The translations under genes were made by a program, and so were the position numbers. From contig CAWHUW010000006.1 in NCBI GenBank assembly GCA_963832655.1, positions 252,403-316,402 on the forward strand: DNA of 64,000 nucleotides, read 5' to 3'. The notes under the pieces were generated by a model that was not told where the DNA came from, searched no databases, and saw only the letters and a program-made list of their open reading frames with translations. This document shows, in pieces, positions 23,177-56,934 of this stretch (positions within the stretch are counted from its first letter, which is position 1; every line of letters begins with the position of its first letter). The stretch is from an uncultured Thermoleophilia bacterium. Lineage in GTDB: Bacteria > Actinomycetota > Thermoleophilia > UBA2241.

Positions 23177-23180
<4 letters not shown>
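21639..23180 (-). CDS. cysS: cysteine--tRNA ligase, frame broken at >=6 places
   Basis: GTG at 23180 (GTGA overlap with the gltX stop). Fragments [33 protein letters not shown] (22404..23180), [49 protein letters not shown] (22177..23743 frame set) and [13 protein letters not shown] (21870..22319). C-terminal end [16 protein letters not shown] by hand. Confidence 0.8.
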
Positions 23181-24699
<1,519 letters not shown>

Positions 24700-24854: not shown

Positions 24855-26337
24855 ATGCCCCACGACCAGCGGGAGACCCCGTATCTCGACGCCGTCCTCG
24901 CCTACCGTCGGCGCGGCTACACGCCGTTCCACACCCCCGGCCACAAGCTCGGCAAGGGGGCGCCGGCCGAAGCTCCGCGAGCTTCTCGGCGACGACCTGC
25001 CTTCAGGTCGACCTCGCGATGGCCGGGGCGGTCGAGGACACGCGCGAGTCGACCGGCCTCATCCACCTCGCCGAGGAGTACGCGGCCGAGGCGTGGGGCG
25101 CGGACCGCTGCCACTTCCTCGTCAACGGCTCGACGAGCGGCGTCCACGCTCTGGTCCTCACGCTGGCCGGCCCCGGCGAGACCGCTCATCGTGCCGCGCA
25201 ACGCCCACAAGTCGCTGCTCGCGGCGCTGATCTACTCCGGGGCGACGCCGTTCTACGTCGAGCCGCCAGATCGAGCCCGACATGGGGCATCCCGCTCAAC
25301 GTCGACCGTCGCCCAGGCCGACGCAAGCCCTGCGCGCCCATCCCGAGGCCAAGGCGCTGTTCGTCACGTCCCCGACCTACAACGGCCTGTGCGCGGACCT
25401 GCCCGCCATCGCCGCCGCGCGCTCACGCGGCCGGGGTCCCGTTCGTCGTCGACCAGGCCTGGGGACCGCATCTGCGCTTCTGCCCCGAGCTGCCGGTCGA
25501 CGCCATGACCGCCGGCGCCGACGCCTGCGTGGTGAGTACGCACAAGCTCATCAGCGGCATCACCCAGTCCGCCGTGCTTCTGGCCCGCAGCGAGCGCCTC
25601 AATCTCGCCCGCCTCGAGGGCATGGTCAAGATGACCCAGAGCACGAGCCCCCAGGTGCTGATGTACGCGTCGATCGACGCCGCGCGCCAGCAGATGGCGA
25701 CGCGAAGGCGCCGAGCTCTGGCGCGGGGCCATCGCTGAGGCGGAGTGGGCACGCGAGCGCATCAACGAGATCCCCGGGTTGCGCTGCCTCGGCCGCGAGG
25801 TGCTCGGGGCCGAGGGGGTGGCCGAGTTCGATCCGACGCGGCTGACGATCTCGGCCCTCGACCTCGGCCACAGCGGCACCGAGCTCGAGACGATCCTGCG
25901 CGACGACTACGCCGTCGCCGTCGAGGCGGCCGATCCGCTGGCCATCATCCTCAACGTGACGTTCGGCGACACGATGGACGACCTGCGCACGCTCGTGGAC
26001 TCGCTGCGCGACTACGCGGCGCGCCACGCCGACGCCTCGGGTCGGCAGGAGGCGGCCGCACGCTGGCTGCGCCTTCGGCCGCCGCCCTTCACGCGCCAGG
26101 TCCTCATCCCGCGGGAGGCCTTCTTCGCCCCGTCGGTCGCGCTGCCGCTGCCAAGACTGCGTCGGCAGGGTCAGCGCCGAGATCGTCACGCCCTATCCGC
26201 CGGGGATCCCGGCCCTGGGCCCGGGCGAGGAGATCGCCGCCGAGACCGTCACGTACCTCGTTGAGGCGGCCGCGGTACGGCTCAAGGTGCACGGCCCCGA
26301 GGACCTGAGCCTGCGCACCCTCCGCGTGGTCGCCTGA
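24855..26337 (+). CDS. Orn/Lys/Arg decarboxylase family 1 (PLP-dependent), frame broken at >=6 places
   Basis: ATG at 24855 after GAGAGGAGG. Fragments [14 protein letters not shown] (24747..25508), [53 protein letters not shown] (25019..25738) and [22 protein letters not shown] (25779..26264 and a third frame). Confidence 0.7.
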
Positions 26338-33339: not shown

Positions 33340-34435
33340 GTGCGCAACCTTACCCTCGGTGATCGCGGCAGAGAAGTCTCGGACGTGCAGAAGCGCCTGC
33401 GCGCCCAGGGCTTCGTGCTCGGCAACGAGGGCGTCGACGGCTTCTACGGCCCCCACACGCGAGCTCGCCGTGTGCGCCTTTCAGCAGCGCCGCGACCTGC
33501 TGGTCGACGGCGAGGTCGGCGACAACACGTGGCGCGAGCTGGTCGAGACCGGGTACACGCTCGGCGACCGCCTCCTCTACCTGCGCGAGCCGCAGTTCCG
33601 CGGCGACGACGTCCTCGCCCTGCAGGTCAAGCTCAACCTGCTCGGCTTCAACGCAGGTCCCGAGCGCGGCGTCCACGACGAGGACGTCGAGCGGGCCGTC
33701 CTCGACTTCCAGCGCAACGCGGGGCTTGTCGCCGACGGCATCGTCGGACCGACGACCCTGCGACAAGCTCAGAGCGTTGCGCAAGGCCGAGTCGGGCCGC
33801 GAAGGCAAGAAGATCCCCGACCGCCACGGCGGCTACGTCGAGGCGCGCGACCCTGGCGGGGCAGGTGGTCGCCGTTGGACCCCGGCCATGGCGGCGCCGA
33901 CAGTGGCGTCGTGTCGGCGCGCGGCGTCGCCGAGAAGGACGTCGACGCTGACCGTGGCCCGGCGGCTGGAGGAGCTGCTGCGCGCCGAAGGCTGCCAGGT
34001 CGTCGCTGACCCGCACCGGCGACAGGGACGTGCCTCTCTACGAGCGGACCGAGACGGTCTTGGCCGCCGACGCCGACTTCATGTTCTCGCTGCACGCGAA
34101 CGGCCACGAGTCGCCGGCGGCGACGGGCGCCGCGTGCTACTTCTTTCAGCGCAGCCACTACTTCTCGGAACACGGACACCGGCTGGCGCAGCACGTCGGC
34201 GCCCGCCTCGCCGCGCTGGGGACACCGCTTCCTCGGCAGCTTCGGGCGCAACTACGGCATCCTGCGCGAGCCGCGTGCGATCGGCGCTGCTCGTCGAACC
34301 GGTGTTCCTGAGCAGCCCGGCGGACGAGGCTGGGCCGCGAGAGCGGACTTCGACGACCGCGTCGCCGCGGCGATCGCGCCGGGCTGGCCTCGTACCTGCA
34401 GCGGGCGCCGCTCGGACGGGGACGATGCCGTGTGA
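33340..34435 (+). CDS. peptidoglycan-binding-domain N-acetylmuramoyl-L-alanine amidase, multiple frame breaks
   Basis: GTG at 33340. Two PG_binding_1-like repeats: GDRGREVSDVQKRLRAQGF..VDGFYGP and GDDVLALQVKLNLLGF..VADGIVGPTT. Amidase_3 segments follow: VVAVDPGHGGADSG, ADADFMFSLHAN, NYGILREPRA. The TGA overlaps the pylS GTG. Confidence 0.65.
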
Positions 34436-35287
34436 GCCCCGACGCGCCCGACGTGATGAGGCTGACGCCGACGCAGATCCAGCGCCTGCGCGAGCTCGGC
34501 GCCGATCCGGCGCAGCTGGACGAGGACTTCCCGACGGCGGCGGCGCGCGACACCGCCTTCAAGAAGCTCGAGGAGGACTTCGTGCGCGCCGGCAGGGCGC
34601 AGCTCGACGAGCTGCGCCGGACCCGGCGCGCGCCCCGACTGCTCGAGCTCGAGGCGGCGCTGCGCGCCGCCCTCATCGACGCGGGCTTCGTCGAGGTCGT
34701 GACGCCGCACATCATCGCCGGCGAGGCGCTGGCGAAGATGGGCGTCGGGCACGGCCACCCGCTGCGCGAGCAGGTCTTCTGGCTCGAGGACGGAGCCTGC
34801 CTGCGGCCCATGCTGGCCCCGAACCTCTACACGCTCCTGCGCAAGCTCGGCCGCATCTGGAGCCGGCCCTTCGGGATCTTCGAGATCGGCACGTGCTTTC
34901 GCCGCGACAGCAAGGGCAGCCAGCACCTGAACGAGTTCACGATGCTCAACCTCGTCGAGCTCGGGCTGCCCCGGGAGGCGTGCCGGCCGCGCCTCGACGA
35001 GCTCGCCGAGCTCGTCGTGCACGGCGGCAGGCATCGAGGAGTACCAGCTCGTGCGCACGGTGTCGGAGGTCTACGGCGAGATGCTCGACGTGGAGGTCGA
35101 CGGGCAGGAGGTCTGCTCGGCCGCGGTCGGCCCTCTCCCCATGGACGACAACTGGGGCATCGTGGAACCATGGGTCGGGCTCGGCTTCGGCCTCGAGCGC
35201 CTCCTCATGGCGCGCGAGGGGTACCCCAACATCGAGCGCGCCGGCCGCAGCCTCACCTACGTCGACGGCATCCGCCTGAACATCTGA
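34432..35287 (+). CDS. pylS: pyrrolysine--tRNA(Pyl) ligase, catalytic C-terminal-type protein (bacterial split PylSc), one frame break near 35020
   Basis: ORF 34432..35385 gives LRPMLAPNLYTLLRKLGRIWSRPFGIFEIGTCFRRDSKGSQHLNEFTMLNLVELG. Frame +1 (ORF 35051..35287, open from ~35021) gives AAGIEEYQLVRTVSEVYGEMLDVEVDG..VGPLPMDDNWGIVEPWVGLGFGLERLLMAREG..RSLTYVDGIRLNI. Both blocks match remembered PylS sequences of Methanosarcina and Desulfitobacterium nearly motif for motif. Confidence 0.9.
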
Positions 35288-35333
35288 GGCGCGGCCGGTG
35301 GTCTGGCTGCCGCCTGCCGCGAGCGGCCGGAGG

Positions 35334-35984
35334 TCAGGGCAGCCTGGCCGCCTTCACGATCAGCTTGGCGTCGAGCCATGCCTGACCGCCCGGCTCCGTC
35401 ACGTGCGCGAGAAGCTCGCGCACGCGGGCGGCCGTCTCTCCCTCGCACCGGGTGCATGACAACCACTCAGCGAAGACGTGACGGCGCGGGTGCTGCGCCA
35501 GGTCGACGACCCGGAGCCCCGCTGCCGAGAGCATCGCGACCCACTCCGTCTTCGTGTAGGCGCGCACGTGCGTCACGTCGCGCAACCGCTCGGCCTCTTC
35601 CACGCGCTCGTCGTTGTGCAGACCGTCCTCGATCACCACGAGGCGACGGCTGACTCGCGCCATCTCTTGGACGGCACCGGCCGGGTCATCGAAGTGGTGC
35701 GCGGCGAGGCGGCAGACGACGACGTCGAAGGACCGGTCCGCGAAGGGCAGCGCCTCGGCCGGGCAGACGACGTCGGGCTCCATGCCGGCGGAGGCGTCGC
35801 ACGTCGTCACCGTGCAGCCGCGCTCACGCAGGCGCCGCGCGACGTGACCCCCGCCCGTGGCGACGTCGAGCGCCGTCACGCCCTGCACCGGCTCGCACCA
35901 CTCGACCACGAGGTCGAGGTCGGCGCCGGCGCGATGCACGGCGCTGCGCTCGTACGCCTCGCGGCGCTCGTCCCACTCGTTCAC
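35334..35984 (-). CDS. class I SAM-dependent methyltransferase (Methyltransf_11-like)
   Basis: ORF 35334..35984, GTG start. ALDVATGGGHVARRL (motif I) and FDVVVCRLAAHHF. Confidence 0.75.
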   Translation of the reverse strand: MNEWDERREAYERSAVHRAGADLDLVVEWCEPVQGVTALDVATGGGHVARRLRERGCTVTTCDASAGMEPDVVCPAEALPFADRSFDVVVCRLAAHHFDDPAGAVQEMARVSRRLVVIEDGLHNDERVEEAERLRDVTHVRAYTKTEWVAMLSAAGLRVVDLAQHPRRHVFAEWLSCTRCEGETAARVRELLAHVTEPGGQAWLDAKLIVKAARLP

Positions 35985-36055
35985 GACACGAGTCTACGCG
36001 AAGCCGACGCGGGTCGCCCCGTCCTGCCCCCGACGCCGCCCTGAACGTAACGTGA

Positions 36056-36083
36056 GAGGGGCGGGCCTCACGGCCCGCCCCTC
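36056..36083 (-). terminator. hairpin terminator downstream of corrinoid protein gene
   Basis: 12-bp stem GAGGGGCGGGCC/GGCCCGCCCCTC with a 4-nt loop, about 50 nt after the TAG stop at 36131. Confidence 0.5.
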
Positions 36084-36130
36084 GGGAGTCTCGCAAAGGT
36101 CCGGGGCGTCGCCCCGCGAAGGCGTCTTCC

Positions 36131-36769
36131 CTACTTGCCCAGCAGCGCGTCGATCTTCTTGACGCCGTCGTTGGCGTCCTCGGCGTAGGCGTCGGCGCCG
36201 ATCTGGTCGGCCCAGCGCTGGGTGGCGGGAGCGCCGCCCACCACGGTCTTGAAGGAGAGGCCCTCGTCCTTGATGACCTTGATGACCTTCTTCTGCTCCT
36301 CCATCGTCGTCGTCAGCAGAGCGCTCATGCCGATGATGTCGGCGTTCCCTTCCTTGGCCTTGGCGATGAAGGTCTGCGCGGGGACGTCGCGGCCCAGGTC
36401 GGTGACCTCGTAGCCGTTGGCCTTGAGGTAGGCGATCACGATCGCCTTGCCGATGTCGTGCACGTCGCCCTGCACGGTGCCGATGACGACGCGCCCCTTG
36501 GTGGTCGCCGCGCCGGCCTCGAGGGCGGCGTTGGTGACCTCGGTCGCCCCCGCCATCGCGTCGGCGGCCATCATCAGCTCGGGGAGGAACATCTCGCCGC
36601 TCTCGAAGAGCTCGCCGACCTCCTGGATGCCCTTCACGAAGCCGTTCTGCATGATGTCGGCTGGGGTCATGCCCGCGGCCAACGCACGCTTGGCGATGTC
36701 TTCGGCGGCCGCGCGGTCGGCGTTGACGATCGCCTCGCTGGCTTCCTGGTAGAGCTCTTCGTTCCCCAT
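36131..36769 (-). CDS. corrinoid (cobalamin-binding) methyltransferase-partner protein (MtbC/MttC/MtmC-like)
   Basis: ORF 36131..36811; ATG at 36769 after GGGAGGAG. FVKGIQEVGELFESGEMFLPELMMAADAM, B12-binding motif GTVQGDVHDIGKAIV, MSALLTTTM, VGGAP. TAG stop. Confidence 0.9.
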   Translation of the reverse strand: MGNEELYQEASEAIVNADRAAAEDIAKRALAAGMTPADIMQNGFVKGIQEVGELFESGEMFLPELMMAADAMAGATEVTNAALEAGAATTKGRVVIGTVQGDVHDIGKAIVIAYLKANGYEVTDLGRDVPAQTFIAKAKEGNADIIGMSALLTTTMEEQKKVIKVIKDEGLSFKTVVGGAPATQRWADQIGADAYAEDANDGVKKIDALLGK

Positions 36770-36917
36770 GGCCTCGCACTCCTCCCAACGTCGTTCGCAG
36801 CCGTAGATCATACTGCAGCCGTCGCCGACGACCTCGCTCGCGGCAGGGCAAGGCTTTCATCCGATTGGATGACTGTCAAGGACGAGCCGCCGCGCACGCC
36901 TCTGCTAGACTCGGGCC

Positions 36918-37797
36918 ATGAGGTATCACGGCGCCGTCATCCGACCCCCGAGCGAGGCCACCAGCCTCATCCTGCAGGTGACCTACGGGTGCTCCAACAA
37001 CACCTGCGACTTCTGCGGGACGTACCTGGACAAGCCGTTCGCGGTCCGGCCGTTCGGCGAGGTCGCCGAGGACGTGACCGGGCTTCCGGCGGCGGTCAAG
37101 GCGCGCGCCCAGCGCGTCTTTCTCGCCGACGGCGATGCGCTCGCGCTGTCGGCCCGCCGGCTGCTCGAGATCCTCGACCTGCTGCACGCGGAGCTCCCCA
37201 ACCTCGAGCGCGTGAGCTCGTACGCCAACGCGAAGAACCTGCTCGACATGCAGGTCGACGAGCTGCGCCAGCTCAGCGAGCGGGGGCTCGACCTCCTGTA
37301 CCTCGGGCTCGAGTCGGGCGACGACCAGACGCTCGCCGCCATCCACAAGGGCATGACGGTGAGCCGAGCAGGTCGAGGGCTGCCGGCGGGCGAAGGCGGC
37401 CGGCATGAAGCTCTCGGTCACGGCGATCCTCGGCCTCGCCGGCACCGCCCGCTCTCTCGAGCACGGGCGGGCGACGGGCGAGGCCCTCTCGGCCATCGAC
37501 CCCGCCTACATCGGCATCCTCACCCTCATGCTCGTGCCGGGCACGGGCATGCACCACAAGGTCGAGAGCGGCGAGATCGCGCTGCCGGACTCCGTCGGCA
37601 TGCTGCGGGAGCTTCGCGAGATCGTCGCCCACACGGACGTCACCGACTGCCTCTTCCGCTCGAACCATGCCTCCAACTACCTGCCCGTCGGCGGCCGCCT
37701 GCCACAGGACAAGGCGGCCATGCTGACGCGGCTCGACAAGGTGCTCCAGGCGCCCGAGGCCGTGCAGTTGCGGCCCGAGACCTGGCGCGCCCTCTAG
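36918..37797 (+). CDS. radical SAM protein (Cx4Cx2C cluster motif), one frame break near 37360
   Basis: ORF 36918..37916 gives MRYHGAVIRPPSEATSLILQVTYGCSNNTCDFCGTY..FLADGDAL..YLGLESGDD. It continues in the ORF 37405..37797 frame (open from 37363): AEQVEGCRRAKAAGMKLSVTAILGLAG..LTLMLVPGT..FRSNHASNY. TAG stop. Confidence 0.8.
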
Positions 37798-37836
37798 GGA
37801 CGGCGCCGTGCGCGGGCCAGGGGCGCTTCGCTCGTC

Positions 37837-38422
37837 ATGGTCGTCGCCGTGGTGCTGGTCGGGGCTCGCGGTCTGGACGTGGCTGCCGCCGACCGAGTCC
37901 TCGCAGGAGGCGATGAAGCAGAGCATCGTGCGCTACGACACGGCTTCCCTCATCGCCTGGCCCGAGGACCGTCCCGGGCAGACGTCGCTCCCGCAGGCGG
38001 CGAAGGACGAACTGCGTGCGAAGTGGCACACGACGCTCGCCGCAGTATCGGAGGGTGACGCCCTGACGAGGACACTTCAGTTCGATGCGGTCGACCAGAT
38101 GCTGGGCGATCGCCGCCGCCAGCCGGACCGGGTAGTGGTGGCGTGCGGCGGCGAGGTCGTGTACTTCGACGTGCGCCGCCGCACCCTGCGGGGCACGGTG
38201 ATCGTCCGCGCCGCCGTCGCCGAGTGGGTCGAGGCAGGGACGTGGGACGCGGACAGCGGCGCGGTGGTGCGCGTCACGCGCGAGAAGCGCACCAGCGTCC
38301 CGCTGTGTGACTACACCCTGCGCCAGCGCGGCGACGTGTGGAAGGTCGTCGACCGCGCCGCACCGAAAGGCGGGCCGTTCTTCTTCGACACCGAGACCGG
38401 AGAGACGTCGAGCGGGCTGTGA
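37837..38422 (+). CDS. hypothetical membrane-anchored protein, frame break at the G4 run 37861..37864
   Basis: ATG at 37837 gives MVVAVVLVG (ORF 37837..38058). The ORF 37808..38422 frame continues LAVWTWLPPTESSQEAMKQ... Removing one G joins them into one TM helix. I recognise no family. Confidence 0.5.
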
Positions 38423-38480
38423 CGGGCGCCCGCCCGTGCCGCCTTCATCATGCGCCCCAGACGCCCAGCGTGAAGGTTCC

Positions 38481-38825
38481 TCAGCCCGCCGGCATGTCCT
38501 CGTCCCTGAGGAACGAGCCGTAGTCGCGGCGGAACTTCGTCGCCGCGTACTTCTGCAGCTTCCACTCGGGGATGCGGCACTGCGGACAGGCCTCGATGAA
38601 CCACTTGTTGCGCAGCCAGCGGGCGGAGCGGCTGGTCTTCGAATCGCGAACGACCATGCGCTTGCCGCAATGCGTGATGACGATCGCGTGCAGGCCGCGA
38701 GGCTCGAAGTCGCGCACCCCGTGCAGGATACCGCGACGCGACGGCCAGAGCTTCATCTTCTCGACCAGGCGGAAGAGAGGCACCTGCTTGCGGTAGTAGC
38801 GCGCCTTGTTCGGGTCGGTGGGCAT
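38481..38825 (-). CDS. pylSn: pyrrolysyl-tRNA synthetase N-terminal domain protein (PylSn, tRNA(Pyl)-binding)
   Basis: ORF 38481..38825: KLWPSRRGILHGVRDFEPRGLHAIVITHCGKRMVVRDSKTSRSARWLRNKWFIEACPQCRIPEWKLQKY. This aligns with the M. mazei PylS N-terminus [61 protein letters not shown] (LW.SR.G..H, CG, VV..S..SR.AR.LR, C..CR). Confidence 0.85.
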   Translation of the reverse strand: MPTDPNKARYYRKQVPLFRLVEKMKLWPSRRGILHGVRDFEPRGLHAIVITHCGKRMVVRDSKTSRSARWLRNKWFIEACPQCRIPEWKLQKYAATKFRRDYGSFLRDEDMPAG

Positions 38826-38826
38826 G

Positions 38827-40501
38827 TCAGGGCGTCGCGGCCCGGTAGAAGGGCAGGAAGTCGTAGACCGCCCTGGTGGCCACGCCGTCGAGGACGGTGT
38901 CGACCGTCAGCCTGTCAGGGCGCCACTCCTCCGGACCCACACGGAACGAGCCGTCGCCCAGCGGCACGAGCTCGAGCTCGCCGGCCGGCTCGTCGAGCCA
39001 CGGGGCGATCAGCCACAGGCTGCCGGCGCGCTCGACGACGCGCAGGTGGCTCATCCAGGGGTTCCAGCAGTGGTAGTGGCCGCAGACGGCGGATGCGCCG
39101 GGGATCGGGGGGAACTCCGTCGGGCCGCCGTAGGCGGGCCCGGCGTACCAGTCCGCGCCGTGCGTCACCTGCGTGACGCGTCCCTGCTCGTCACGCCAGA
39201 AGCGCAGCGGGAAGCGGTCGAGGTCGGCGTGCGGGACGAGGAAGACGTCCTCGTCGTCGCGCTCGAGGACGACGTCGGCGCCCTGGTGGCGCAGAAGGAG
39301 ACGTCCGCCGGCGGCCGCGAGCGTCAGCGAGCGGCCCGACGCCGGCCCGCCCGGGGGCGCCGCGTACACGCCGGCGTACTCCCCGGCCGCGCCGCCCGAG
39401 GTCGGCGGGCGGCGGCGGCGGCGGCGCAGGCATGGCCTGCCCGGCCGCCGCCGCCCGCCCCGCCTCCAGCACGTACTTGACGAGGTCCTTGCGCTCCTCG
39501 TTGCCGTTCATGAGGACGACGACGCCCAGACCCGCGTCGGGATCGACCATCAGGTACGAGCTGAAACCCACCATGCCGCCCGAGTGACCCACGAGCGTGC
39601 GGCCTTCGTCGTCGTAGACCCCGAGTCCGTACCCGTACCAGTCGTCCTCGGTCGGATCCTCGACGTGCCGCCCCGTCAGCAGGCGGAACGCTTCGGCGCT
39701 GAGCGACCGGCCGTCGGGTCCCTCGCCGCCGTTGAGCAGCAGCCGCGCGTACGCGCACATGTCGGCGGCCGTCGACACGATGCTGCCGTCGGCGCTGGCG
39801 GTCTCGTACCAGGGACTCGCCACCAGAGGGTGCCCCCCGTGCCGGGGCCTGTCGTCGTACATGCGCTGGTGCGGCGTCGCCGTCGACGCCCTCGTGGCCA
39901 GAGCGATCATGGGGTCGCTGTCGTCCATCCCCAGCGGCAACAGCAGTCTCTCGGCGAGCAGCTCCGGGAACGGTGCGCCGGTCACCTCCTCGAGCACGAC
40001 GCCGAGCAGCTTGTAGCCGTCGTTCGAATACAGGAAGCGCTCGCCGGGCGCGTACGTGCACTCGCTCTCGCGCATGAGCCACAGCTCGTGGCGCGCGTCC
40101 AGGCTGACGTCCGTGCCGGTGATGAGGCCGGAGGTGTGGGTGAGCAGGTGGTGGAGCGTGATCGGGGCGAAGCGCGAGCGCACGGTGAACCACGGGACGT
40201 AGTCGGTGACGGGGGCGTGCAGATCGAGGTTCCCGCGTTCCCATTCCTGGAGAACGATGATCGCCGTGAACGACTTGCTGATCGAGCCGATCTGGAAGCG
40301 GTCGGTCGCAGTCATCGGGCGTCGCGCGGCAAGGTCGGCCCAACCACACGCGACGGCGCCGAGAGACCTGTCGCGGTCGGTGAGGCCGACGACCGCGCCG
40401 GGCGTGTGCCACCGCGGCAGACGTGCGTCGATGAAGGCGCCGACCTGCTCGAGCAGGGGCGTCGCATCCATGCGCGCGGTCGAGTCGAGTGAGCCCGTCA
40501 T
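38827..40501 (-). CDS. serine hydrolase (beta-lactamase/PBP4*-like) with C-terminal extension domain, one frame break near 39395
   Basis: ORF 39191..40900 carries DRFQIGSISKSFTAII (SxxK), YSNDGY and GHSGGMVGF. ORF 38827..39369 forms the C-terminal domain. The stop lies 1 nt before the pylSn ATG. Confidence 0.75.
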
Positions 40502-40609
40502 CGCCCGCCCATGATAGCCGTTCGGAGGGCGCCGCATCGGGGAGGCGCAGGAGGGCGGACGGCGCGCGCGAAGATGAAGGTTCCCGCCCGCCGAACGAGG
40601 GAGAGACCG

Positions 40610-41509
40610 ATGAAACGTGCCGGCATCGTCGTCGCCGCCCTGGCCATCCCGGTAGCCGTCGTCCTCGCTCTCGCCTTTGGCCTCGCCTCCTGCGGCGACG
40701 ACGGGACCGCTGGACCCACGCCGACCAAGACGGTGACCGTCACGGCGACCCCTTCCGCCTCGCCGTCGCCCTCCCCAAGCCCGACGGGGACGATGACGGT
40801 CTCCATCTACCTCATGCGCGGCGAGACGCTGGGCGTCGCCCACCGCGAGGTGCCGGCCTCCGTCGCCGTGGCGAAGGCGGCGATGACCGCGCTGCTCCAA
40901 GGGCCGAACGCGCGCGAGAAGGCCGCCGGCCTGACCACGACGATCCCCGCCGGCACGACGCTCAACGAGGTGACGATCGAGGACGGCACGGCGCGCGTGG
41001 ACCTGAGCGACGACTTCGCGAGCGGTGGCGGTTCGCTCTCGATGCAGGCACGGGTCGCCCAGGTCGTCTATACGCTCACGCAGTTCAGGACGGTCAATCG
41101 CGTCGACTTCTGGATCGACGGCGGGCTCGTCGAGACGCTCGGGGGCGAAGGGCTCGACCTGAGCGCCGGACAGACCCGCGCCGACTGGGAGGAGATGCTG
41201 CCGGCGATCTTCGTCGAGACGCCGGCCGTCGGCGACGTCATCACCGGCTCTCGCCTCGCCGTCCGCGGCAGCGCCTCCGTGTTCGAGGCGACCTTCGTGG
41301 TCGAAGTCCTCGGCGCCGACGGTGCGATCGTCGCCGACAAGACGGTGACCGCCACGGAGGGCGCCCCGGGGCGCGGCGTCTTCGCGGTACGCCTCGGCCT
41401 GCCGCCGATGAGCGGCAAGGGCAAGCTGGTCGCCTACGAGGTCTCGATGGAGGACGGCTCGCGCATGAACCAGGTGAGGATCCCGCTGCGCTTCGCCGTC
41501 GAGGACTGA
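40610..41509 (+). CDS. GerMN-domain plus Gmad2-like Ig-domain lipoprotein
   Basis: In ORF 40511..41509; ATG at 40610 after GAGGGAGAG. Signal plus lipobox LALAFGLASCGDD, then VSIYLMRGE..ALLQGPN..GLTTTIPAGT..VDLS.. (GerMN), then IFVETPAVGDVITG..VRGSASVFEATF. Confidence 0.7.
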   Translation: MKRAGIVVAALAIPVAVVLALAFGLASCGDDGTAGPTPTKTVTVTATPSASPSPSPSPTGTMTVSIYLMRGETLGVAHREVPASVAVAKAAMTALLQGPNAREKAAGLTTTIPAGTTLNEVTIEDGTARVDLSDDFASGGGSLSMQARVAQVVYTLTQFRTVNRVDFWIDGGLVETLGGEGLDLSAGQTRADWEEMLPAIFVETPAVGDVITGSRLAVRGSASVFEATFVVEVLGADGAIVADKTVTATEGAPGRGVFAVRLGLPPMSGKGKLVAYEVSMEDGSRMNQVRIPLRFAVED

Positions 41510-41528
41510 CGGCGGGCGAGAGGACGGC

Positions 41529-41601
41529 TGGCGGGGACTGCGGGAGTCACACCCGCCTGCGTGGGTTTAGAGCCCACGCTGATCCTTTCGATCGAGCCCC
41601 C
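41529..41601 (-). tRNA. pylT: tRNA-Pyl (anticodon CUA), CCA encoded
   Basis: The minus strand reads GGGGGCT C GATC GAAAG GATC AG CGTGGG CTCTAAA CCCACG CAG GCGGG TGTGACT CCCGC AGTCCCC G CCA. Features: 7-bp acceptor stem (one G-U pair), a single nucleotide between the acceptor and D stems, 5-nt D loop without GG, 6(-7)-bp anticodon stem, CUCUAAA loop, 3-nt variable loop, T loop without TTC, and G73 discriminator. Confidence 0.92.
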
Positions 41602-41764
41602 GCGCCGACGACGATGATACCTCCGTCACGGCCGCGCCGCTCCTGGAACTGGCAGAGCAGCGGCGCGTCGGGATAGAGTTGCGCATCACCCGGCGCCGCC
41701 GTATGCCACTCGACGTGCGGTGTCGACGACGATCTCACGGCCACTCACACGAACGGGGGTACTC

Positions 41765-42811
41765 ATGGGCAAGGGACTGAGCTGGGCCCTGACCATCATC
41801 GGCGTCCTGCTGCTCGCCGCCGGGCTCGTCCTCATGCTGGCGATCGTGCCCGGCATGAAGAAGATGCCGGCCGACACCGACACGACGCGAGACTACGAGG
41901 GCACCATGGTGGTGTTGCTGAACCCGGCCGACTTCACCTTCCAGAAGATGCTGCCCATCACCCTCCAGCGGCACTTCGCCGTCACGGAGACCGACGGTGA
42001 CCTCGCCCTTGTGAAGGAAGAGAAGACCATGATGACCGGCAGCACGCCGCTCCAGCAGGTCGTCACCAACTACGCCGTCGACCGGGTCACCATGCTGGCC
42101 ACGGACCAATACCCCGAGGAGTGGGCGACGAGCGAGGGCTTCATCCCGCGCGAGGGCATCGTGCTGAGCTGGCCGATGGACACCGAGCAGAAGGACTACA
42201 CGGGCTGGAGCGACGACTACATGAGCACCGTGCCGCTCACTTTCGCCGAGGAAGCCACGCACGAGCGCAGCGGCATGACGCTCTACAAGTTCACGTCCAG
42301 CAGCGACCCGAAGCCCATCGTCCCCGAGATGGTGACGGCCATGGGCCTGCCGACCGAGCTGCCCAAGGCGCAGGTCCAGCAACTCCTCGGGCAGATCGAC
42401 CTGTCGGCGCTGCCCGGCGACGTCCTGACGACGCTGTTCGCGAAGCTGCCGGACCCGGTGCCGCTGGGCTACTACTACGGCTATGACGGCACCTACTGGA
42501 TCGACCCCGCGACGGGGATCATCGTGGACGTCGAGAAGACCGAGAAGCGCAGCGTGTCCCTCAGCCCCGACCTCCTCGAAGGCACGCCGCTGGCGCTGCT
42601 TCCGGAGGACCAGATGGCGGTGCTCCGGGTCCCGGTCTCGGACTTCAAGTACACCGCCACCGACGCCTCGGTCGAGGCCGCAAAGACCGACGCCGAGGAC
42701 GGGGCGAGCAAGCTTCAGCTCTACGGCACGACGCTGCCGTGGATCGGGATCATCGCCGGCGCCGTGCTGCTGGTGATCGGCCTCGTCCTGATGAGGCGCA
42801 AGACGGCCTGA
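41765..42811 (+). CDS. DUF3068 (PorA-like) membrane protein with N- and C-terminal TM helices
   Basis: In ORF 41720..42811; ATG at 41765. GKGLSWALTIIGVLLLAAGLVLMLAIVP at the N-terminus and WIGIIAGAVLLVIGLVLMRRK at the C-terminus. Family assignment is from general resemblance only. Confidence 0.55.
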   Translation: MGKGLSWALTIIGVLLLAAGLVLMLAIVPGMKKMPADTDTTRDYEGTMVVLLNPADFTFQKMLPITLQRHFAVTETDGDLALVKEEKTMMTGSTPLQQVVTNYAVDRVTMLATDQYPEEWATSEGFIPREGIVLSWPMDTEQKDYTGWSDDYMSTVPLTFAEEATHERSGMTLYKFTSSSDPKPIVPEMVTAMGLPTELPKAQVQQLLGQIDLSALPGDVLTTLFAKLPDPVPLGYYYGYDGTYWIDPATGIIVDVEKTEKRSVSLSPDLLEGTPLALLPEDQMAVLRVPVSDFKYTATDASVEAAKTDAEDGASKLQLYGTTLPWIGIIAGAVLLVIGLVLMRRKTA

Positions 42812-42925
42812 GCTACGCGACAAGGCTCGACGTCGCGGCACGAGCGCGCGCCGCGGAGTGCGACGAGGGGCGGGCGGCACCAGTGCCGCCCGCCCCTCGC
42901 TCGCGTGCGTGGCTTAGCTTCGCCG

Positions 42926-43810
42926 TCAGGCGAGCGCCCGTGCCGCCATGACGGCGACGCCGACCGCGAGAGGGTCGTGGATGTGACGCGGCCCCAGCGC
43001 GGCGCGAGCACCGGCGTCGAGCGCCGGAGGCACCCCCGGCGCCGCGACGATGGCGCCCGGGCAAAGGTCGCCGGCGGTGACGATGTCGGCCACCGGTGTC
43101 GCGTCGAAGAGCAGGTCGCAGCGTGCGAGCCCATCCGCCAGGTCGGTGCGGGCGAACGGGAGTCCGTCGGCCGTCGCCCTCGCCACGGCACCATCGTCGG
43201 GGTCCACGGCGAGCAGGTCGGCGCCCATGGCCGTCAGGCGCCGGCCGGCGGCGCGGCCGACCGGACCGAGGCCGAGCAGCAGGACGGACCGGCCGGCGAG
43301 ACCGCCGGCCGCCGCCGCGAGCGCCGTGACGTACCCGTCGGCCGTCGCCGGGTCGTCGTCGACGCACAGACCCGTGTGGATGTTCAGCGCGATGAACCGG
43401 AAGTCGTCGGCGACGAAGACGACTTCGTCACCCCCTTCGGCCGCCGCCTGCAGACCACGCACGTCGGGCTGCGTCGTGACGTGGGCGTCGCACCCCAGGT
43501 GCCGAAGGATCGTGACGACGCACTCGCAGAAGCCGGGGATGAAGCCCTCGCCGCTGCTCACCGGCACGGCGGCGACGCGGGCGCCGGCGAAGGGCACTGC
43601 TGTCGTCGGCGCCGCCCCTGGCAAGACCGTCGCGTCTGAGCGCTCCGCTCGTGACGCCAGCGCACGGTCGACGTCCACCGTGCGTTGAGCGAGTCCGAGG
43701 AGCGTGAGACCGCAGACCGCGACGAGATCGCGCTCGAACGCGCCGAGGCGCGCGCTCAGCTCCCGGACGTCGTGCTCGGTCAACCTGGTCACCGCGTCAC
43801 CGTCCTTCAC
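42926..43810 (-). CDS. pylD: pyrrolysine biosynthesis dehydrogenase PylD
   Basis: ORF 42926..43810: VAAVPVSSGEGFIPGF, VVFVADDFRFIALN, Rossmann motif LLLGLGPVGRAAG, FDATP, VAAPGVP. These parallel the Methanosarcina PylD blocks VGIVPVTSGNGIIGNF, ILMADDRTFLAHN, VVGLGKVG, FEATP, STPGIP. Confidence 0.85.
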   Translation of the reverse strand: MKDGDAVTRLTEHDVRELSARLGAFERDLVAVCGLTLLGLAQRTVDVDRALASRAERSDATVLPGAAPTTAVPFAGARVAAVPVSSGEGFIPGFCECVVTILRHLGCDAHVTTQPDVRGLQAAAEGGDEVVFVADDFRFIALNIHTGLCVDDDPATADGYVTALAAAAGGLAGRSVLLLGLGPVGRAAGRRLTAMGADLLAVDPDDGAVARATADGLPFARTDLADGLARCDLLFDATPVADIVTAGDLCPGAIVAAPGVPPALDAGARAALGPRHIHDPLAVGVAVMAARALA

Positions 43811-43852
43811 TTGCGGTCCGCGTCGCTCTCGGGCCCGCGGTCGCCGATGTCC

Positions 43853-45070
43853 TCACAGAGTCTCACCCTCAGGGAGAACTTCAAGGTTCTCCTCCGCGGC
43901 CAGCGCGGCGACCACGTCGTCTGCCGTGCGCTGCGCCTCGGCCACGCTCGCTCCCAGTGTGATCAGCGTCGCCGACCACGCTGACCGCCCCGGTCCGTAG
44001 TCGGTCAGCGCCTCGTGGGCACCGAAGAACCCGGGCGCCAAGGTGAGCGGCCGGGCGCCGCCCATGACGTGCTCGCCCGCGACCGCCAGCCTGCCGTCTT
44101 GTGCGTGGACGTGCTGATAGACGCAGGCTCTCGAAGACGTCCTGTCGACCTTCGGCGGACGGCCGTCGGCGATCGTACGCCGCAGCAGCTCGACGATGTT
44201 GAGACCGCTCGACCAGTAGACCGCCGTCGGGGTCTGGCTCGGCAGCCGGGCGTCGATCTCCAGCACCTTGGGCTGCGCCTCGTGGACCATCACTTCGACG
44301 TCCATGAGCCCACGTAGGCCAAGACTTTCCGCGAGCCGCACGGATACCGCGTCGAACGCTTCGAGAACGCCAGGCGCCACGGCCTGCCCCCACGCCTCGC
44401 CCGTGACGCGCTCGTCGGCGGGCGTCGCGCCGGCGGCCTCGCTGACCGGGGCGACGACACGCCGGCAGTCGTAATCGGCGTCGAACTCGAGCCCGGTGAC
44501 CTGCAGGGGCACGGCGTGGCCGTCCCAGCAGAGCACCTCGAGCGAGAGCGACGGGCCGGCGACGTACTCCTCGACTATGGCGTCGTGCCCCTCGGCCTCG
44601 AGCGCGGCGCGCGCCGCGGCGAGCTCATGCTCGTCGGCGGCGAGCCGCACGCCCTCGCTGCCGCTCGCGGCGCTGGGCTTGACGACCACCGGGAACGCAC
44701 AGCCGGGCCACGGTATCGGTCGCGGCACATCAAGCCGCGCGAAGAGCTCGTTCGAGGCGAGCTTGGAGGAGGTCACCGCATACGCGGCGAGGTCGAAGAG
44801 CAGCGGCACGTCCCAACGCGGCACGTGCGCGTCGAGCCAGGCGAGCGTGGCGTCGTCCTCGCAGGCGGGCAGCACGGCGTCGCAGGTGTCCAGCACGGCG
44901 CGGCTCCGCGCCTCGTCGGCGGTCACGTCCATGACCACGTGGACGTCGGCGAGGCCGGCGGCCGGCGGTGCCTCGCGACGGTCGATCAGGACCGTCTCGT
45001 ACCCCGCCTTGGCGGCGAGGTAGACGGCCTCCGTCCCCTGCAGCTTGCCGCCGACGATCGCCAGCCTCAC
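43853..45070 (-). CDS. pylC: pyrrolysine biosynthesis ATP-grasp ligase PylC
   Basis: ORF 43853..45184. GTG at 45070 after GGGGGAG, overlapping the upstream TGA (GTGA). VRLAIVGGKLQGTEAVYLAAKAGYETVLID, VVVKPSAASGSEGV, SLEVL, MDVEV, EIDARLPSQTPTAVYWSSGLNIVELL matches remembered PylC (EIDARFPSQTPTVVYYSSGINLIELL). Confidence 0.88.
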   Translation of the reverse strand: MRLAIVGGKLQGTEAVYLAAKAGYETVLIDRREAPPAAGLADVHVVMDVTADEARSRAVLDTCDAVLPACEDDATLAWLDAHVPRWDVPLLFDLAAYAVTSSKLASNELFARLDVPRPIPWPGCAFPVVVKPSAASGSEGVRLAADEHELAAARAALEAEGHDAIVEEYVAGPSLSLEVLCWDGHAVPLQVTGLEFDADYDCRRVVAPVSEAAGATPADERVTGEAWGQAVAPGVLEAFDAVSVRLAESLGLRGLMDVEVMVHEAQPKVLEIDARLPSQTPTAVYWSSGLNIVELLRRTIADGRPPKVDRTSSRACVYQHVHAQDGRLAVAGEHVMGGARPLTLAPGFFGAHEALTDYGPGRSAWSATLITLGASVAEAQRTADDVVAALAAEENLEVLPEGETL

Positions 45071-45300
45071 GTCGACTCCCCCGTCCGCGGCGGAGCGGCG
45101 GCGCCGGCGACGCGCAGACGCTCCAGCGTCTCTCGGTAGGCCGCGACCCCGGCCGGGCGCAGGCCGCGACGCTCGAGGGCGCACACCCCCAGCCGCGCGC
45201 CTTCCAGCGCGGCCGCGCAGAGTGCGCGCACGGTCTCCCTCGACGGTGTCGTCTGCATGTCCGTCTGTCCGAGCATCACGTCAGCGGCGATCGCGTCGGC
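45067..45300 (-). pseudogene. short ORF translationally coupled to pylC; possible 3' remnant of pylB
   Basis: Tail of ORF 45067..45447 downstream of the nitroreductase stop: ..ADAIAADVMLGQTDMQTTPSRETVRALCAAALEGARLGVCALERRGLRPAGVAAYRETLERL... The stretch LERRGLRPAGVAAYRETL resembles the PylB C-terminal LEIMGMKPARQADFEAVL of Methanosarcina. No radical SAM core is present. Confidence 0.3.
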
Positions 45301-45307
45301 GACCGGC

Positions 45308-46021
45308 TCAGCGCCAGTCGAGCACCTCGTCAAGGGGGCGCCGTCCGCTGCGCCGCGGGCGCCCGGCGGATCGCCCGATCGGGACCAGCGCCGCGAGACG
45401 AGCATCGGCCGGCGCGCCGAGGAGTCCTTCGAGCGCCGGCGCCGCAAGCACCGGCGCCGTCATCCAGCACGACCCGTACCCCATCGCGTGTGCCGCCGTG
45501 ACGAGCAGCTGCACGGCGGCGCCGATACTCTGCAGGTCGGGTCGCTGACGGACGCGGTCCCTCTCATCGGTCGAGAGGCCGCGCGCCGCGAGCAGCTCAT
45601 CGCTGCGCGACGAATACGGCGTCGCGAACACCGCGATCACCACGGGGGCCTCGGCGAAGAACGTCGCGTACGCGCGGATCGCGCGGATGTCGCGTCCGCG
45701 CCCCTGGCACTCCGGCAGGCCGGCCATGACGTCGAGTGCGGCGTGGACCGCCTCCGCCATCTCGCGCCGCAGCGCCTCGTCCTGGACAGCGACGAACCGC
45801 CACGGCTGGGAGTTGCCGGCGTTGGCGGCGCGCACGGCGAGCGCGACCATGGCCTCGATGTCTGCGCGGGGTACCGGGTCGGGAAGGAAGCGGCGGACGC
45901 TGCAGCGTTCCTCCACAGTCGCCGCGAAGCTCGCCTGGCTCAGACGCTCGCGCGCGTCGGAGGCATCACCGGGGACCGCGGGCAGCCGTCCGTCGCTGGT
46001 CTCGTCGCGTCTCCTCGGCAT
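45308..46021 (-). CDS. nitroreductase family flavoprotein
   Basis: In ORF 45308..46303; ATG at 46021. RCSVRRFLPDPVPRADIEAMVALAVRAANAGNSQPWRFVAV .. GAAVQLLVTAAHAMGYGSCWM. Confidence 0.8.
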   Translation of the reverse strand: MPRRRDETSDGRLPAVPGDASDARERLSQASFAATVEERCSVRRFLPDPVPRADIEAMVALAVRAANAGNSQPWRFVAVQDEALRREMAEAVHAALDVMAGLPECQGRGRDIRAIRAYATFFAEAPVVIAVFATPYSSRSDELLAARGLSTDERDRVRQRPDLQSIGAAVQLLVTAAHAMGYGSCWMTAPVLAAPALEGLLGAPADARLAALVPIGRSAGRPRRSGRRPLDEVLDWR

Positions 46022-53919: not shown

Positions 53920-55405
53920 CTACCCGTCCAGCGCCTTGCGCAGGAGCTCGTTGACGAGCTTGGGGTTGGCGCGGCCGCCGGTCACCTTCATCACCTGTCC
54001 GACGAGATACCCGATGACCTGCTGCTTGCCGCCGCGGTACTGCTCGACCTGGGCCGGATTGCCGGCGACGACCTCGGCGACGGCCGCCTCGAGCTGCGCG
54101 CTGTCGGAGATCTGGCCGAGCCCGTGGCTCTCGACGATCGCCTCGGGCTCGGCCCGCTCGGCGATCATCTTCGCGAACACGTCCTTGGCGGCGCTCGTGG
54201 ACACAGCCCCGTCGGCCACCAGTCGAACGAGCTTCGCGAGGCGCTCCGGGGTCACGTGGCCGTGGCCGGGCTCGAGGCCGGCGGCGTTGAGGTGGGCGAG
54301 GTACTCGCCCATCGTCCAGTTGGCGGCCAGCTTGGGGTCGACGCCCTGGGCGACGACCCCCTCGTAGAAGCGCGCCAGAGCGCCGGCCCCGCCGAGCACG
54401 ACGGCATCGGCGCGCGAGAGCCCGTATTGCTCCGTGAAGCGGGCGATGCGCGCGCCGGGCAGCTCGGGCAGGCCGGCGCGCACGCTCTCGACCCAGTCCG
54501 GGTCCATCACCAGCGGCACCAGATCGGGCTCGGGGAAGTAGCGGTAGTCGTGCGCCTCCTCCTTGGAGCGCAGCGGTGTCGTCGTGCCGGTCGCGGGATC
54601 GAAGTGGAGGGTCTCCTGGTCGATCCTGCCGCCGGCCTCGAGGATCTCGACCTGGCGCGGCAGCTCGCTCTCGAGGGCCTGCTGCAGGTAGCGGAAGCTG
54701 TTCATGTTCTTGAGCTCGGTGCGCGTGCCGAGCTCGGCGCTGCCCGACCGGGCGGACGCTGATGTTGGCGTCCCAGCGCACCTGGCCCTCCTCCATGTTG
54801 CACTCGCTCACGCCGAGCTCGATCACGAGGTCGCGGAGCTGCTGGAGGAACTCGCGCGCCGCCGCCGGCGAGGGGATGTCGGGCTCGCTGACGATCTCGA
54901 TCAGCGGCGTGCCGCCGCGATTGAAGTCGACGACCGAGTAGTCCGAGCCGGCGATGCGGCCGGTCTCGCCGCCGGCGTGGACCAGCTTGGCGGCGTCCTC
55001 CTCCATGTGCACACGGCTGATGCGGCAGCGCAGCTTCTCGTCGCCGGCCCAGTACTCGAACCAGCCGTCCACGGCGAGCGGCTCGTCGAACTGCGAGATC
55101 TGGTACGCCTTCGGGAGGTCGGGATAGAAGTAGTTCTTGCGGTGGAACACGTTGCGCGGCCGCACCGTGCAGTTGAGCGCCAGCGCGATGCGCGTCGCGT
55201 ACTCGACGGCGCGCTGGTTGACGACGGGCAGCGCGCCCGGGTGCGCGAGGCAGACCGGGCAGGTGTGCGTGTTCGGCGGGTCGCCCTTGGTCACCGCGCA
55301 GGCGCAGAACATCTTCGTCGCGGTGTCGAGCTCGACGTGGACCTCGAGGCCGATCACCGGCTCCCAGGCGCGGGTCGTGCCTTGCAGGACCGCCGTCGTG
55401 CCCAT
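53920..55405 (-). CDS. gatB: Asp-tRNA(Asn)/Glu-tRNA(Gln) amidotransferase subunit B, one frame break near 54745
   Basis: N-terminal half in the ORF 53882..56500 frame: WEPVIGLEVHVEL..CPVCLAHPGALPV..FHRKNYFYPDLPKAYQISQ..MEEDAAK..DFNRGGTPLIEIV. C-terminal half in ORF 53920..54705: MNSFRYLQ..YRYFPEPDL... TAG stop. Confidence 0.85.
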
Positions 55406-56934
55406 CACTGCCCCCCTCGCCGGCCGGGCCGGAGCTCGCCGTCCGGCGCCCCGGCCGCGGCCGTCCCGGCGCTCGAGTCGCGCAAGGACGGCGTGGGCTC
55501 GAACCCGATCGCCGCCTCGAGGGCGTGCGCCGCGTTCAGGATGCGGTTCTCGCTGAACGCGGGACCGATGAGCTGGAAGCCGACCGGCAGGCCGTCGCTC
55601 AGGCCGCAGGGGACGCTGATCGCCGGCAGGCCGGCGAGGTTCACCGGGATCGTGCAGATGTCGCTCATGTACATCGCCAGCGGGTCGTCGGTCCGCGAAC
55701 CGACCTTGAAGGCCACGGTGGGCGACGTCGGCGAGGCGACGAGGTCGACCTCTTCGAACACGGTCTCGAAGTCGCGGCGCACGAGCGTGCGTACGCGCTG
55801 GGCGCGCCCGTAGTAGGCGTCGTAGTAGCCTGCCGAGAGCGCGTACGTGCCGATCATGATGCGGCGCTTGACCTCGGCCCCGAAGCCCTCGCCGCGCGTG
55901 CGCTCGTACATCGTGGTGAGGTCGTCGGCGTCGGCGGCCCGGTGGCCGTAGCGCACGCCGTCGAAGCGCGCGAGGTTCGCGCTCGCCTCGGCCGGGGCGA
56001 TGATGTAGTAGGCGGGCAGCGCGTACTGGGTGTGCGGCAGGCTCACCTCGACGCAGCGCCCGCCGAGCTCCTCGACGCGCGCCGCCGTCTCGTCGAAGCG
56101 GGCGCGCACGCCGGGCTCGATGCCGGCGGCGAGGTACTCTCGCGGGATGCCGACGCGCATGCCGTCGAGTCGCCCGGCGGTGGGCAGCTCGATCGGCGCC
56201 GGCAGCGCGACGCTCGTCGCGTCGCGGGGGTCCTTGCCGACGATGTGCTGCAGGAGCAGGGCGCAGTCGTAGACCGAGCGCGTCAGCGGCCCGATCTGGT
56301 CGAGCGAGCTGGCGAAGGCGACGAGCCCGTAGCGCGACACGGCCCCGTACGTGGGCTTCATGCCGACGATGCCGCACAGGGCGGCCGGCTGGCGGATGGA
56401 GCCGCCCGTGTCCGACCCCAGGGCCCACAGCGCCTCGCCGGCGGCCACCGCGGCGGCGGAGCCGCCGCTCGAGCCGCCGGGCACGGTGGCGAGGTCCCAC
56501 GGGTTGCGCGTCGTCTGGAAGCCCGAGTTCTCGGTGGACGAACCCATCGCGAACTCGTCCAGGTTCGTCTTGCCGAGCATGACGACGTGGTCGTCCCAGA
56601 GCTGACGCACGGCGGTGGCGGTGTACACGGGCATGTAGTTGTGCAGGATCCGCGAGGCGCAGGTCGTGGTGACGCCCTCGGTCACCATGTTGTCCTTGAC
56701 GGCGATCGGCAGTCCGGCGAGCGGGCCGCGCATCGCCTGCATCTCGCGGTCGACCTTGGTCGAGTACTTCGCCGCGTTGTCGGCGGTGACGACGATGTAG
56801 GCGTGCACCCTGTCTTCGACGGCGGCGATCTGGTCCAGATAGGCCTTGGTGAGCTCCGCCGCCGAGACCTCGCCGTCGACGAGCAGCTTCTTGGCCTCGC
56901 GCGCCGTGAGGCGCAGCGTGTCGAGCGAACCCAC
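55405..56934 (-). CDS. gatA: Glu-tRNA(Gln) amidotransferase subunit A
   Basis: ORF 55405..56934, GTG start. Amidase signature GGSSGGSAAAVAAG, KDN, GSDTGGSIRQPA. Confidence 0.92.
   Translation of the reverse strand: MGSLDTLRLTAREAKKLLVDGEVSAAELTKAYLDQIAAVEDRVHAYIVVTADNAAKYSTKVDREMQAMRGPLAGLPIAVKDNMVTEGVTTTCASRILHNYMPVYTATAVRQLWDDHVVMLGKTNLDEFAMGSSTENSGFQTTRNPWDLATVPGGSSGGSAAAVAAGEALWALGSDTGGSIRQPAALCGIVGMKPTYGAVSRYGLVAFASSLDQIGPLTRSVYDCALLLQHIVGKDPRDATSVALPAPIELPTAGRLDGMRVGIPREYLAAGIEPGVRARFDETAARVEELGGRCVEVSLPHTQYALPAYYIIAPAEASANLARFDGVRYGHRAADADDLTTMYERTRGEGFGAEVKRRIMIGTYALSAGYYDAYYGRAQRVRTLVRRDFETVFEEVDLVASPTSPTVAFKVGSRTDDPLAMYMSDICTIPVNLAGLPAISVPCGLSDGLPVGFQLIGPAFSENRILNAAHALEAAIGFEPTPSLRDSSAGTAAAGAPDGELRPGRRGGQ

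Follow-up and report, generated by a model that had tools for sequence, protein, structure and literature searches.

Does a set of pyrrolysine (Pyl) genes that lies scattered over both DNA strands, among genes of other kinds, amount to a genuine system for the 22nd amino acid, and is that system complete? The question is raised by a stretch of 64,000 nucleotides (hereafter the window) from contig CAWHUW010000006.1 of an uncultured bacterium, in which genes for the two subunits of pyrrolysyl-tRNA synthetase (PylRS), pylSc and pylSn, for tRNA-Pyl (pylT) and for the biosynthetic enzymes PylC and PylD had been recognized by inspection of the letters alone (the original prediction). Descriptions of Pyl biology deal nearly exclusively with methanogens, Firmicutes and Deltaproteobacteria, and the typical bacterial cluster, of the Desulfitobacterium hafniense or Acetohalobium arabaticum type, has the order pylTScBCDSn. 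The analysis reported here makes it probable that the window carries a canonical split-PylS pyrrolysine system inherited within an uncultured clade of Thermoleophilia, a class of the Actinomycetota, in a copy that lacks most of pylB, more likely through a real and recent deletion than through an assembly artefact.

In the established pathway PylB converts lysine to (3R)-3-methyl-D-ornithine, PylC ligates this product to a second lysine and PylD oxidizes the ligated product, after which ring closure yields pyrrolysine, and PylRS charges it onto the tRNA-Pyl that reads UAG (PMC11467909). A 2022 survey listed two Actinobacteria among 81 bacterial PylRS genomes (PMC9630628), and our literature search returned no paper on Pyl in Thermoleophilia, nor any that combined Thermoleophilia with trimethylamine methyltransferase.

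Methods

Genes were called from third-position G+C content (GC3), since plain lists of open reading frames are noisy at the ~70% G+C of the window. Proteins were identified with NCBIfam equivalog models and their curated cut-offs, and tRNA genes with ARAGORN. For the analysis of synteny, window proteins were mapped onto fetched loci of relatives, with ARAGORN run in addition; these loci are designated L001–L011 and L014–L016, L010 being from Aminicenantes and L014 being ena:ERZ25039545:contig_26898.

Results

All four Pyl proteins that had been proposed score above the cut-offs of their NCBIfam models. The catalytic subunit of PylRS is encoded by pylSc (34432..35287, plus strand), which reaches 316 bits with TIGR02367 (cut-off 178) after removal of one extra base, and whose product aligns without gaps and over its full length to the crystallized PylSc of D. 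hafniense (3DSQ/2ZNI; E 3e-93). The small, tRNA-binding subunit is encoded by pylSn (38481..38825, minus strand; TIGR03912, 120.8 bits, cut-off 51) and aligns to the N-terminal domain of Methanosarcina mazei PylRS (5UD5); an exact-protein look-up of PylSn returned two short contigs only. Also on the minus strand are pylD (42926..43810; TIGR03911, 177.6 bits, cut-off 150), pylC (43853..45070; TIGR03909, 353.3 bits, cut-off 248) and, downstream of pylD, pylT (41529..41601), which ARAGORN placed at exactly the coordinates first proposed. The original prediction was therefore right about the identity and position of all five components, and the outcome that it had named as its refutation, scores under the trusted cut-offs, did not occur; pylSc, however, is not a single open frame, as its frame changes near position 35019.

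The same account had described the genomic background as very GC-rich and Gram-positive-like, which agrees with its placement in the Thermoleophilia. The repaired PylSc sequence is 71 to 93% identical to more than 100 database clusters, of which a few bear the name of a source organism, either ‘Thermoleophilia bacterium’ or ‘Actinobacteria bacterium’. Only some of the clusters, a minority, are named PylS or PylS-like, many being unnamed or called ‘PheRS alpha chain’, and NCBI gives some of the relatives' proteins the name ‘pyrrolysine--tRNA(Pyl) ligase large subunit’. The top match (P0001, 93% identity) is an intact protein of 284 amino acids (aa) encoded on the 640,917-bp contig CAVPRQ010000013.1, part of the metagenome-assembled genome (MAG) MFD00032.bin.2.201 of an uncultured Thermoleophilia bacterium (locus L011). 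This contig and the window are colinear over ~30 kb, with a nucleotide identity of 92 to 95%, and it is this colinearity at ~92%, together with the PylSc relatives, that places the window in the class.

The five components span 34432..45070 with eight other genes between them, and do not form a contiguous, co-oriented cassette. That they are scattered over ~11 kb on both strands was thus correctly seen, but the layout is no oddity of this genome, being conserved in about ten related Thermoleophilia loci. The full island is present in L003, L011, L015 and L016, and its pylBCD-pylT half in L004 to L009, pylB-C-D(-T) being a compact module in the relatives. A left block (gltX, Orn/Lys decarboxylase, tldD/pmbA, an HTH regulator, OsmC, uppP and an amidase) leads into pylSc, and a right block (aldehyde:ferredoxin oxidoreductase, ferredoxin, a ThiS/MoaD-like gene and a nitroreductase) leads into pylB-pylC-pylD and then pylT; between the blocks are found pylSn, a corrinoid protein gene with a divergent radical S-adenosylmethionine (SAM) gene, a GerM lipoprotein gene and lineage-specific inserts. 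The two arms of the island, which measures ~9 to 11 kb and is bordered by these conserved housekeeping blocks, read toward each other. In L015 and L016 the plan occupies 9 kb; in L003, which is from a short-read MAG free of frame breaks, a serine hydrolase gene is added ahead of pylSn; and in the window and L011 a methyltransferase gene has been added, plus a PorA/DUF3068 gene between pylD and pylT. The inserts in the window are those for the methyltransferase, the serine hydrolase and PorA. The search that returned these loci also returned L010, which has the canonical order pylT-Sc-B-C-D-Sn, and the method is therefore able to detect compact cassettes.

Every Pyl protein gene had been thought to be coupled to a non-Pyl gene upstream. 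This holds for pylSc, whose start overlaps the stop of the amidase gene (GTGA) in a gene junction that is conserved in L001, L002, L014, L015 and L016, and for pylSn, which starts 1 nt past the stop of the serine hydrolase gene. It does not hold for pylD, which begins ~40 nt after pylC, nor for pylC, which starts with GTG and shares a GTGA overlap with the stop codon of a remnant of pylB. Because this plan recurs in the relatives, both the position of pylT downstream of pylD and the attachment of the pylS subunits to non-Pyl genes are ancestral in the clade. Some loci show parts of the set: L004 and L008 have no pylS gene in the ~7.5 kb downstream of pylT, L005 ends at pylT, L002 has pylSc and pylSn with no pylT or pylBCD within 10 kb, and L014 has the amidase-pylSc pair with no pylSn, pylT or pylBCD within the same distance. 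The sets of L002 and L014 may be either split across distant loci or partly lost.

The pylB remnant was overlooked in the original prediction, which had not listed pylB among the components. It consists of 70 codons directly upstream of pylC (45067..45279, minus strand), in which ~29 N-terminal and ~40 C-terminal codons are joined in frame, and it matches no protein family. In L011 the intact gene, between the nitroreductase gene and pylC, encodes a 375-aa radical SAM protein that scores 454.7 bits with TIGR03910 (cut-off 348), and pylB is likewise intact directly upstream of pylC in all ten relatives that have pylC (L003–L009, L011, L015 and L016). Relative to L011, the window shows an internal, in-frame deletion of 918 bp (306 codons) with its junction at ~45172 to 45178: positions 8982..9892 of L011 have no counterpart by blastn, and the heptamer CCTCGAG stands at both ends of the deletion in L011, 918 bp apart, with one copy left in the window.

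Whether this deletion is a property of the organism or of the assembly has to be judged against the quality of the sequence. The window contains about two dozen frame breaks, ~1 per 3 kb, within otherwise conserved genes, including those for phosphofructokinase (PFK), cysS, gltX, Orn/Lys decarboxylase, TldD/PmbA, gatB and a metallophosphoesterase (sites at 167-1250, 21645-23183, 23768-24551, 25424-26331, 53926-55408, 60977-61899 and elsewhere). Breaks of the same type are present in the closest public relative, which belongs to the Microflora Danica MAG set of Nanopore-only assemblies given one Medaka polish (PMC12313526). They are the signature of uncorrected long-read indel errors, and pseudogene calls in the window are unsafe for that reason. 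An assembly or population artefact at pylB, in the form of a minority structural variant or a noisy long-read mis-assembly that conceals a full working set like that of the relatives, is accordingly conceivable, and the Nanopore-only origin of the nearest relatives, the retention of pylB in all ten of them and the apparent selection on the other pyl genes are all in keeping with it. Nanopore errors, however, are indels on the scale of 1 nt and not clean losses of 918 bp; no other large indel interrupts the 30-kb alignment to L011; and biological deletions at microhomologies typically look like this one, in frame and with a 7-bp direct repeat at its ends. Since its size, in-frame state and flanking microhomology are typical of a biological deletion and unlike long-read indel noise, we consider it reasonably probable that the deletion is real and recent; an artefact seems to us rather unlikely.

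A number of findings nevertheless weigh against a functional lineage-wide system with a genuine recent deletion. The deletion junction, searched as an exact 26-mer and as a gapped 30-base pattern, had 0 matches in JGI metagenome contigs, so that no second dataset shows it, which is in keeping with an artefact. An assembly this prone to error leaves room for a collapsed or minority-variant assembly at pylB, and a second copy of pylB elsewhere in the genome is compatible with data whose scope is the 64-kb window. The ratios of nonsynonymous to synonymous substitution rates (dN/dS) between the window and L011 are 0.07 to 0.38 for pylSn, pylSc, pylD and pylC, similar to those of neighbouring genes (0.11 to 0.52), and indicate purifying selection on the pyl genes that are left, but indel errors in the two assemblies blur these values. 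Finally, no MttB, MtbB or MtmB domain was found by Pfam on all called window genes or among the genes listed for the loci of the relatives, and when the window and 10 loci were scanned, guided by GC3, for genes with an in-frame TAG, all that emerged were artefacts of antisense frames and ordinary stops. The window and the fetched loci thus offer no convincing client that would show the lineage to use its Pyl system.

The pylSc frame is broken by one extra base near 35019 relative to L001, L002 and L003, and removal of that base restores ‘...ELVVTAAGIEEY...’. Because equal breaks occur throughout the window, cysS, gltX, gatB and PFK included, the break has no specific biological weight and is most likely a long-read indel error or other assembly noise; neither pseudogenization nor programmed frameshifting is supported, given the frequency of similar breaks and the single base by which the window differs from three relatives. 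Were the frameshift as real as the pylB deletion, the locus would be an early-stage pseudogene cluster in a genome that no longer decodes UAG. Two lesions in two essential components would fit such a loss, as would the lack of client genes nearby in the window, and the solitary pylSc of L014 suggests erosion in the clade. Yet frame breaks of this kind also hit clearly essential genes, at ~1 per 3 kb, pylC, pylD, pylSn and pylT are intact, the pylT sequence is identical to the L011 copy and dN/dS is not elevated, and we therefore regard ongoing loss of the system as improbable.

The pylT gene, the sole tRNA found by ARAGORN in the 64 kb, specifies a tRNA-Pyl with anticodon CUA, an encoded CCA end, G1:C72, G73 and a D-loop of 5 nt; a single base separates its acceptor stem from its D stem, and its variable region is short. 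Over eight loci its cloverleaf has 99.4% of cells paired, with compensatory changes at 8 of the 23 stem pairs, far above shuffled and slid controls. Positions 23:43 also covary (G:C, G:U, A:U), which suggests a seventh pair that would lengthen the anticodon stem in this clade. Rfam gave no matches on the whole window, and its general tRNA model failed to report tRNA-Pyl even at E up to 1, as expected for so atypical a tRNA.

The surroundings of pylT were uninformative in a scan for promoter and terminator consensus sequences. Between pylD and pylT lies the insert that encodes a PorA/DUF3068 (PgfA-like) membrane protein (41765..42811, plus strand; NF053601 PgfA, 147 bits, cut-off 160), present in L004, L005, L008 and L011 and absent in L003, L006, L007, L015 and L016. 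The spacer between the convergent pylD and PorA genes (42812..42925) forms a GC-rich hairpin with a 16-bp perfect stem (−74.3 kcal/mol in ViennaRNA), which in this folding model is likely to act as a bidirectional terminator lacking a T-run. Because this strong hairpin separates the two genes, pylT presumably must have its own promoter here. On its other side pylT adjoins, as in L003, L015 and L016, the gene for a GerM/Germane-type lipoprotein (40610..41509, plus strand; Pfam Germane/Gmad2 on the L001 and L002 orthologues).

Of the 34 genes called with confidence, 6 end in TAG, two of them being the corrinoid and radical SAM genes of the island, and UAG remains an ordinary stop here, as in other Pyl bacteria. 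The corrinoid gene has a TAG stop in the window (36131-36133), L002, L003 and L011, and the radical SAM gene has one in the window, L002, L007 and L011, and TAA in L003. Read-through of these two codons was considered and rejected, the downstream in-frame extensions being unconserved, so that both look like true stops within a locus that encodes a UAG suppressor. It was also observed that pylC and pylD share a reading frame, their spacer (43811-43855) consisting in the window and L011 of TGA and 14 sense codons, and in L006 of a TAG stop with a longer spacer; read-through of the pylC stop would yield a PylC-PylD fusion, an arrangement that is probably coincidental.

The six genes that had been named as separating the Pyl components, for a SAM methyltransferase, a corrinoid protein, a radical SAM protein, a serine hydrolase, a GerM-like lipoprotein and a DUF3068 protein, were correctly identified, but to call all of them unrelated to Pyl does not do justice to the corrinoid protein. 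This methylamine-type protein (MtbC/MttC/MtgC-like; 36131..36769, minus strand) scores 222.6 bits with TIGR02370 pyl_corrinoid (cut-off 215.3), the ‘methyltransferase cognate corrinoid protein’ family, which was built around the partners of methylamine methyltransferases, and its gene is kept between pylSc and pylSn in L002, L003, L011, L015 and L016. The radical SAM gene divergent from it (36918..37797, plus strand; frame break near 37355) is its conserved partner in the relatives and has weak NCBIfam matches (HpnJ, 42 bits; MnmL, 36 bits). It was examined as a candidate for PylB and rejected, as it has no match to TIGR03910 and the true pylB site is upstream of pylC.

Among the remaining neighbours, the cell-wall amidase upstream of pylSc (33376..34435, plus strand; Pfam PG_binding_1 and Amidase_3) has several broken frames. 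The class I SAM-dependent methyltransferase (35334..35984, minus strand), present in L011, L015 and L016 and absent in L003 and L002, has generic NCBIfam methyltransferase matches only (CpaM, 20.8 bits, cut-off 180). A poorly conserved protein of unknown function (37808..38422, plus strand) has no NCBIfam match and a dN/dS of ~0.57 to 0.60 relative to the relatives. The beta-lactamase-family serine hydrolase upstream of pylSn (38827..40503, minus strand; frame break near 39400) has class C beta-lactamase and D-aminopeptidase-like NCBIfam matches, all below cut-off, and is present in L003 and L011 and absent from L015 and L016. The nitroreductase-family protein (45308..46021, minus strand) is weakly BluB/FbiB-C-like (NCBIfam BluB, 69 bits, cut-off 150); its gene lies directly upstream of pylB in eight relatives' loci (L003, L004, L005, L007, L008, L011, L015 and L016); L006 gave no above-threshold match, and L009 is not long enough to show whether it has the gene. 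In the eight loci it is downstream of the ThiS/MoaD-like, ferredoxin and tungsten-type aldehyde:ferredoxin oxidoreductase genes, BluB itself being dimethylbenzimidazole synthase.

Further cobamide-related genes occur in the window at distances of 18 to 30 kb from the island. They encode a CobA/BtuR-type corrinoid adenosyltransferase (4393-4920, minus strand), a DUF1638 protein (7670-8332, plus strand), a second, frame-broken MtgC/MtbC-like corrinoid protein beside ABC permeases (10218-10886, minus strand) and a B12-binding radical SAM enzyme that is BchE/HpnJ-like (15508-16833, plus strand); no cognate MT1 methyltransferase was seen in the window. At the other end, the segment 60001-64000 has a G+C content of 63 to 64%, whereas most of the remaining window lies at 68 to 75%. 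This segment, which may have been laterally acquired, carries genes for an unknown 265-aa protein, the metallophosphoesterase with the broken frame, a permease for amino acids and a regulator of the Lrp/AsnC type.

Discussion

Our current working hypothesis is that, in the relatives of this organism, PylB, PylC and PylD build pyrrolysine out of two lysine molecules, that PylSc, aided by PylSn, charges tRNA-Pyl(CUA), and that the charged tRNA reads UAG in competition with termination. The relatives encode proteins or RNAs for all of these steps, and the window for all except that of PylB. The lineage would on this hypothesis keep a working Pyl system by vertical descent, the genome described here being a recent pylB-deletion variant of it or, less likely, a mis-assembled one. 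As sequenced, the locus cannot make 3-methyl-D-ornithine and therefore cannot make pyrrolysine.

It is tempting to speculate that decoding might persist in the absence of PylB. In Escherichia coli, PylC and PylD turn D-ornithine and lysine into desmethylpyrrolysine, which is accepted by PylRS (PMC11467909), and an organism that combined a real deletion with this route, or with scavenging of 3-methylornithine or pyrrolysine from its community, would read UAG as desmethylpyrrolysine or as imported Pyl. The retention and conservation of pylC, pylD, pylS and pylT would fit such a scheme, although a very recent deletion explains their retention equally well. No natural precedent for it is known, moreover, the locus has no linked source or transporter of D-ornithine, and the scheme would also need desmethylpyrrolysine to be active in methylamine methyltransferases, so that we consider it very improbable. 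If it were true, a soil actinobacterium would have an auxotrophic or altered 22nd amino acid, with pylC, pylD, pylSc, pylSn and pylT under selection.

The more probable interpretation, an inherited canonical system with a recent pylB deletion, has consequences of its own. If the deletion is real, the window would be a snapshot of a genetic-code expansion in the course of being lost or modified. With pylB missing and pylSc frame-broken in an error-prone assembly, this is also a genome that a presence/absence pipeline would mis-score. Beyond the single genome, the full pyrrolysine machinery is now documented in high-GC Actinomycetota of soil and sediment for a lineage at the level of a class, with a conserved, lineage-specific layout that is not a cassette, and the more than 100 close PylSc clusters in metagenomes suggest that this lineage holds a large stock of unstudied PylRS/tRNA-Pyl pairs and Pyl clients.

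Compared with bacterial clusters of the D. hafniense and A. arabaticum type, the system has the same six components, a PylRS split into PylSc and PylSn, continued use of TAG as a stop, and a tRNA-Pyl with the same CUA anticodon, G1:C72, G73, 5-nt D-loop, single base from acceptor to D stem and short variable region. In PylSc the agreement extends to the gap-free, full-length alignment with the D. hafniense protein. It differs in that the window genes are non-contiguous and lie on both strands, with pylT after pylD and not before pylS, that both PylS subunit genes adjoin genes unconnected with Pyl, that pylB is deleted in this copy, and that the host is a high-GC actinobacterium with no adjacent mtt, mtb or mtm genes. 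Bacterial pyl clusters have been viewed as ‘variable, but compact’ (PMC11467909), but interrupted bacterial clusters and remote pylB genes have been described previously, and among archaea the pylB of ‘Candidatus Methanomethylophilus alvus’ is ~0.7 Mb from its other pyl genes and Methanomassiliicoccus luminyensis has extra isolated copies of pylC and pylT (PMC3941956). The Methanomassiliicoccales resemble the window in that their pyl genes are not in one cassette; they have, however, a PylRS without the N-terminal domain and an atypical tRNA-Pyl, whereas the window has PylSn and a bacterial-type tRNA, and its dispersal is confined to ~11 kb and syntenic across the clade. The closest comparison is with public loci from Thermoleophilia MAGs (for example CAVPRQ010000013.1 and JAKPOQ010000028.1), which match the window in gene order and in their flanks, with identities from 92% (L011) down to ~75%, and carry an intact pylB where the window has only the 70-codon remnant. 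The components of the system are thus orthodox, and what is new is the host lineage, the conserved dispersed layout and the deletion in pylB.

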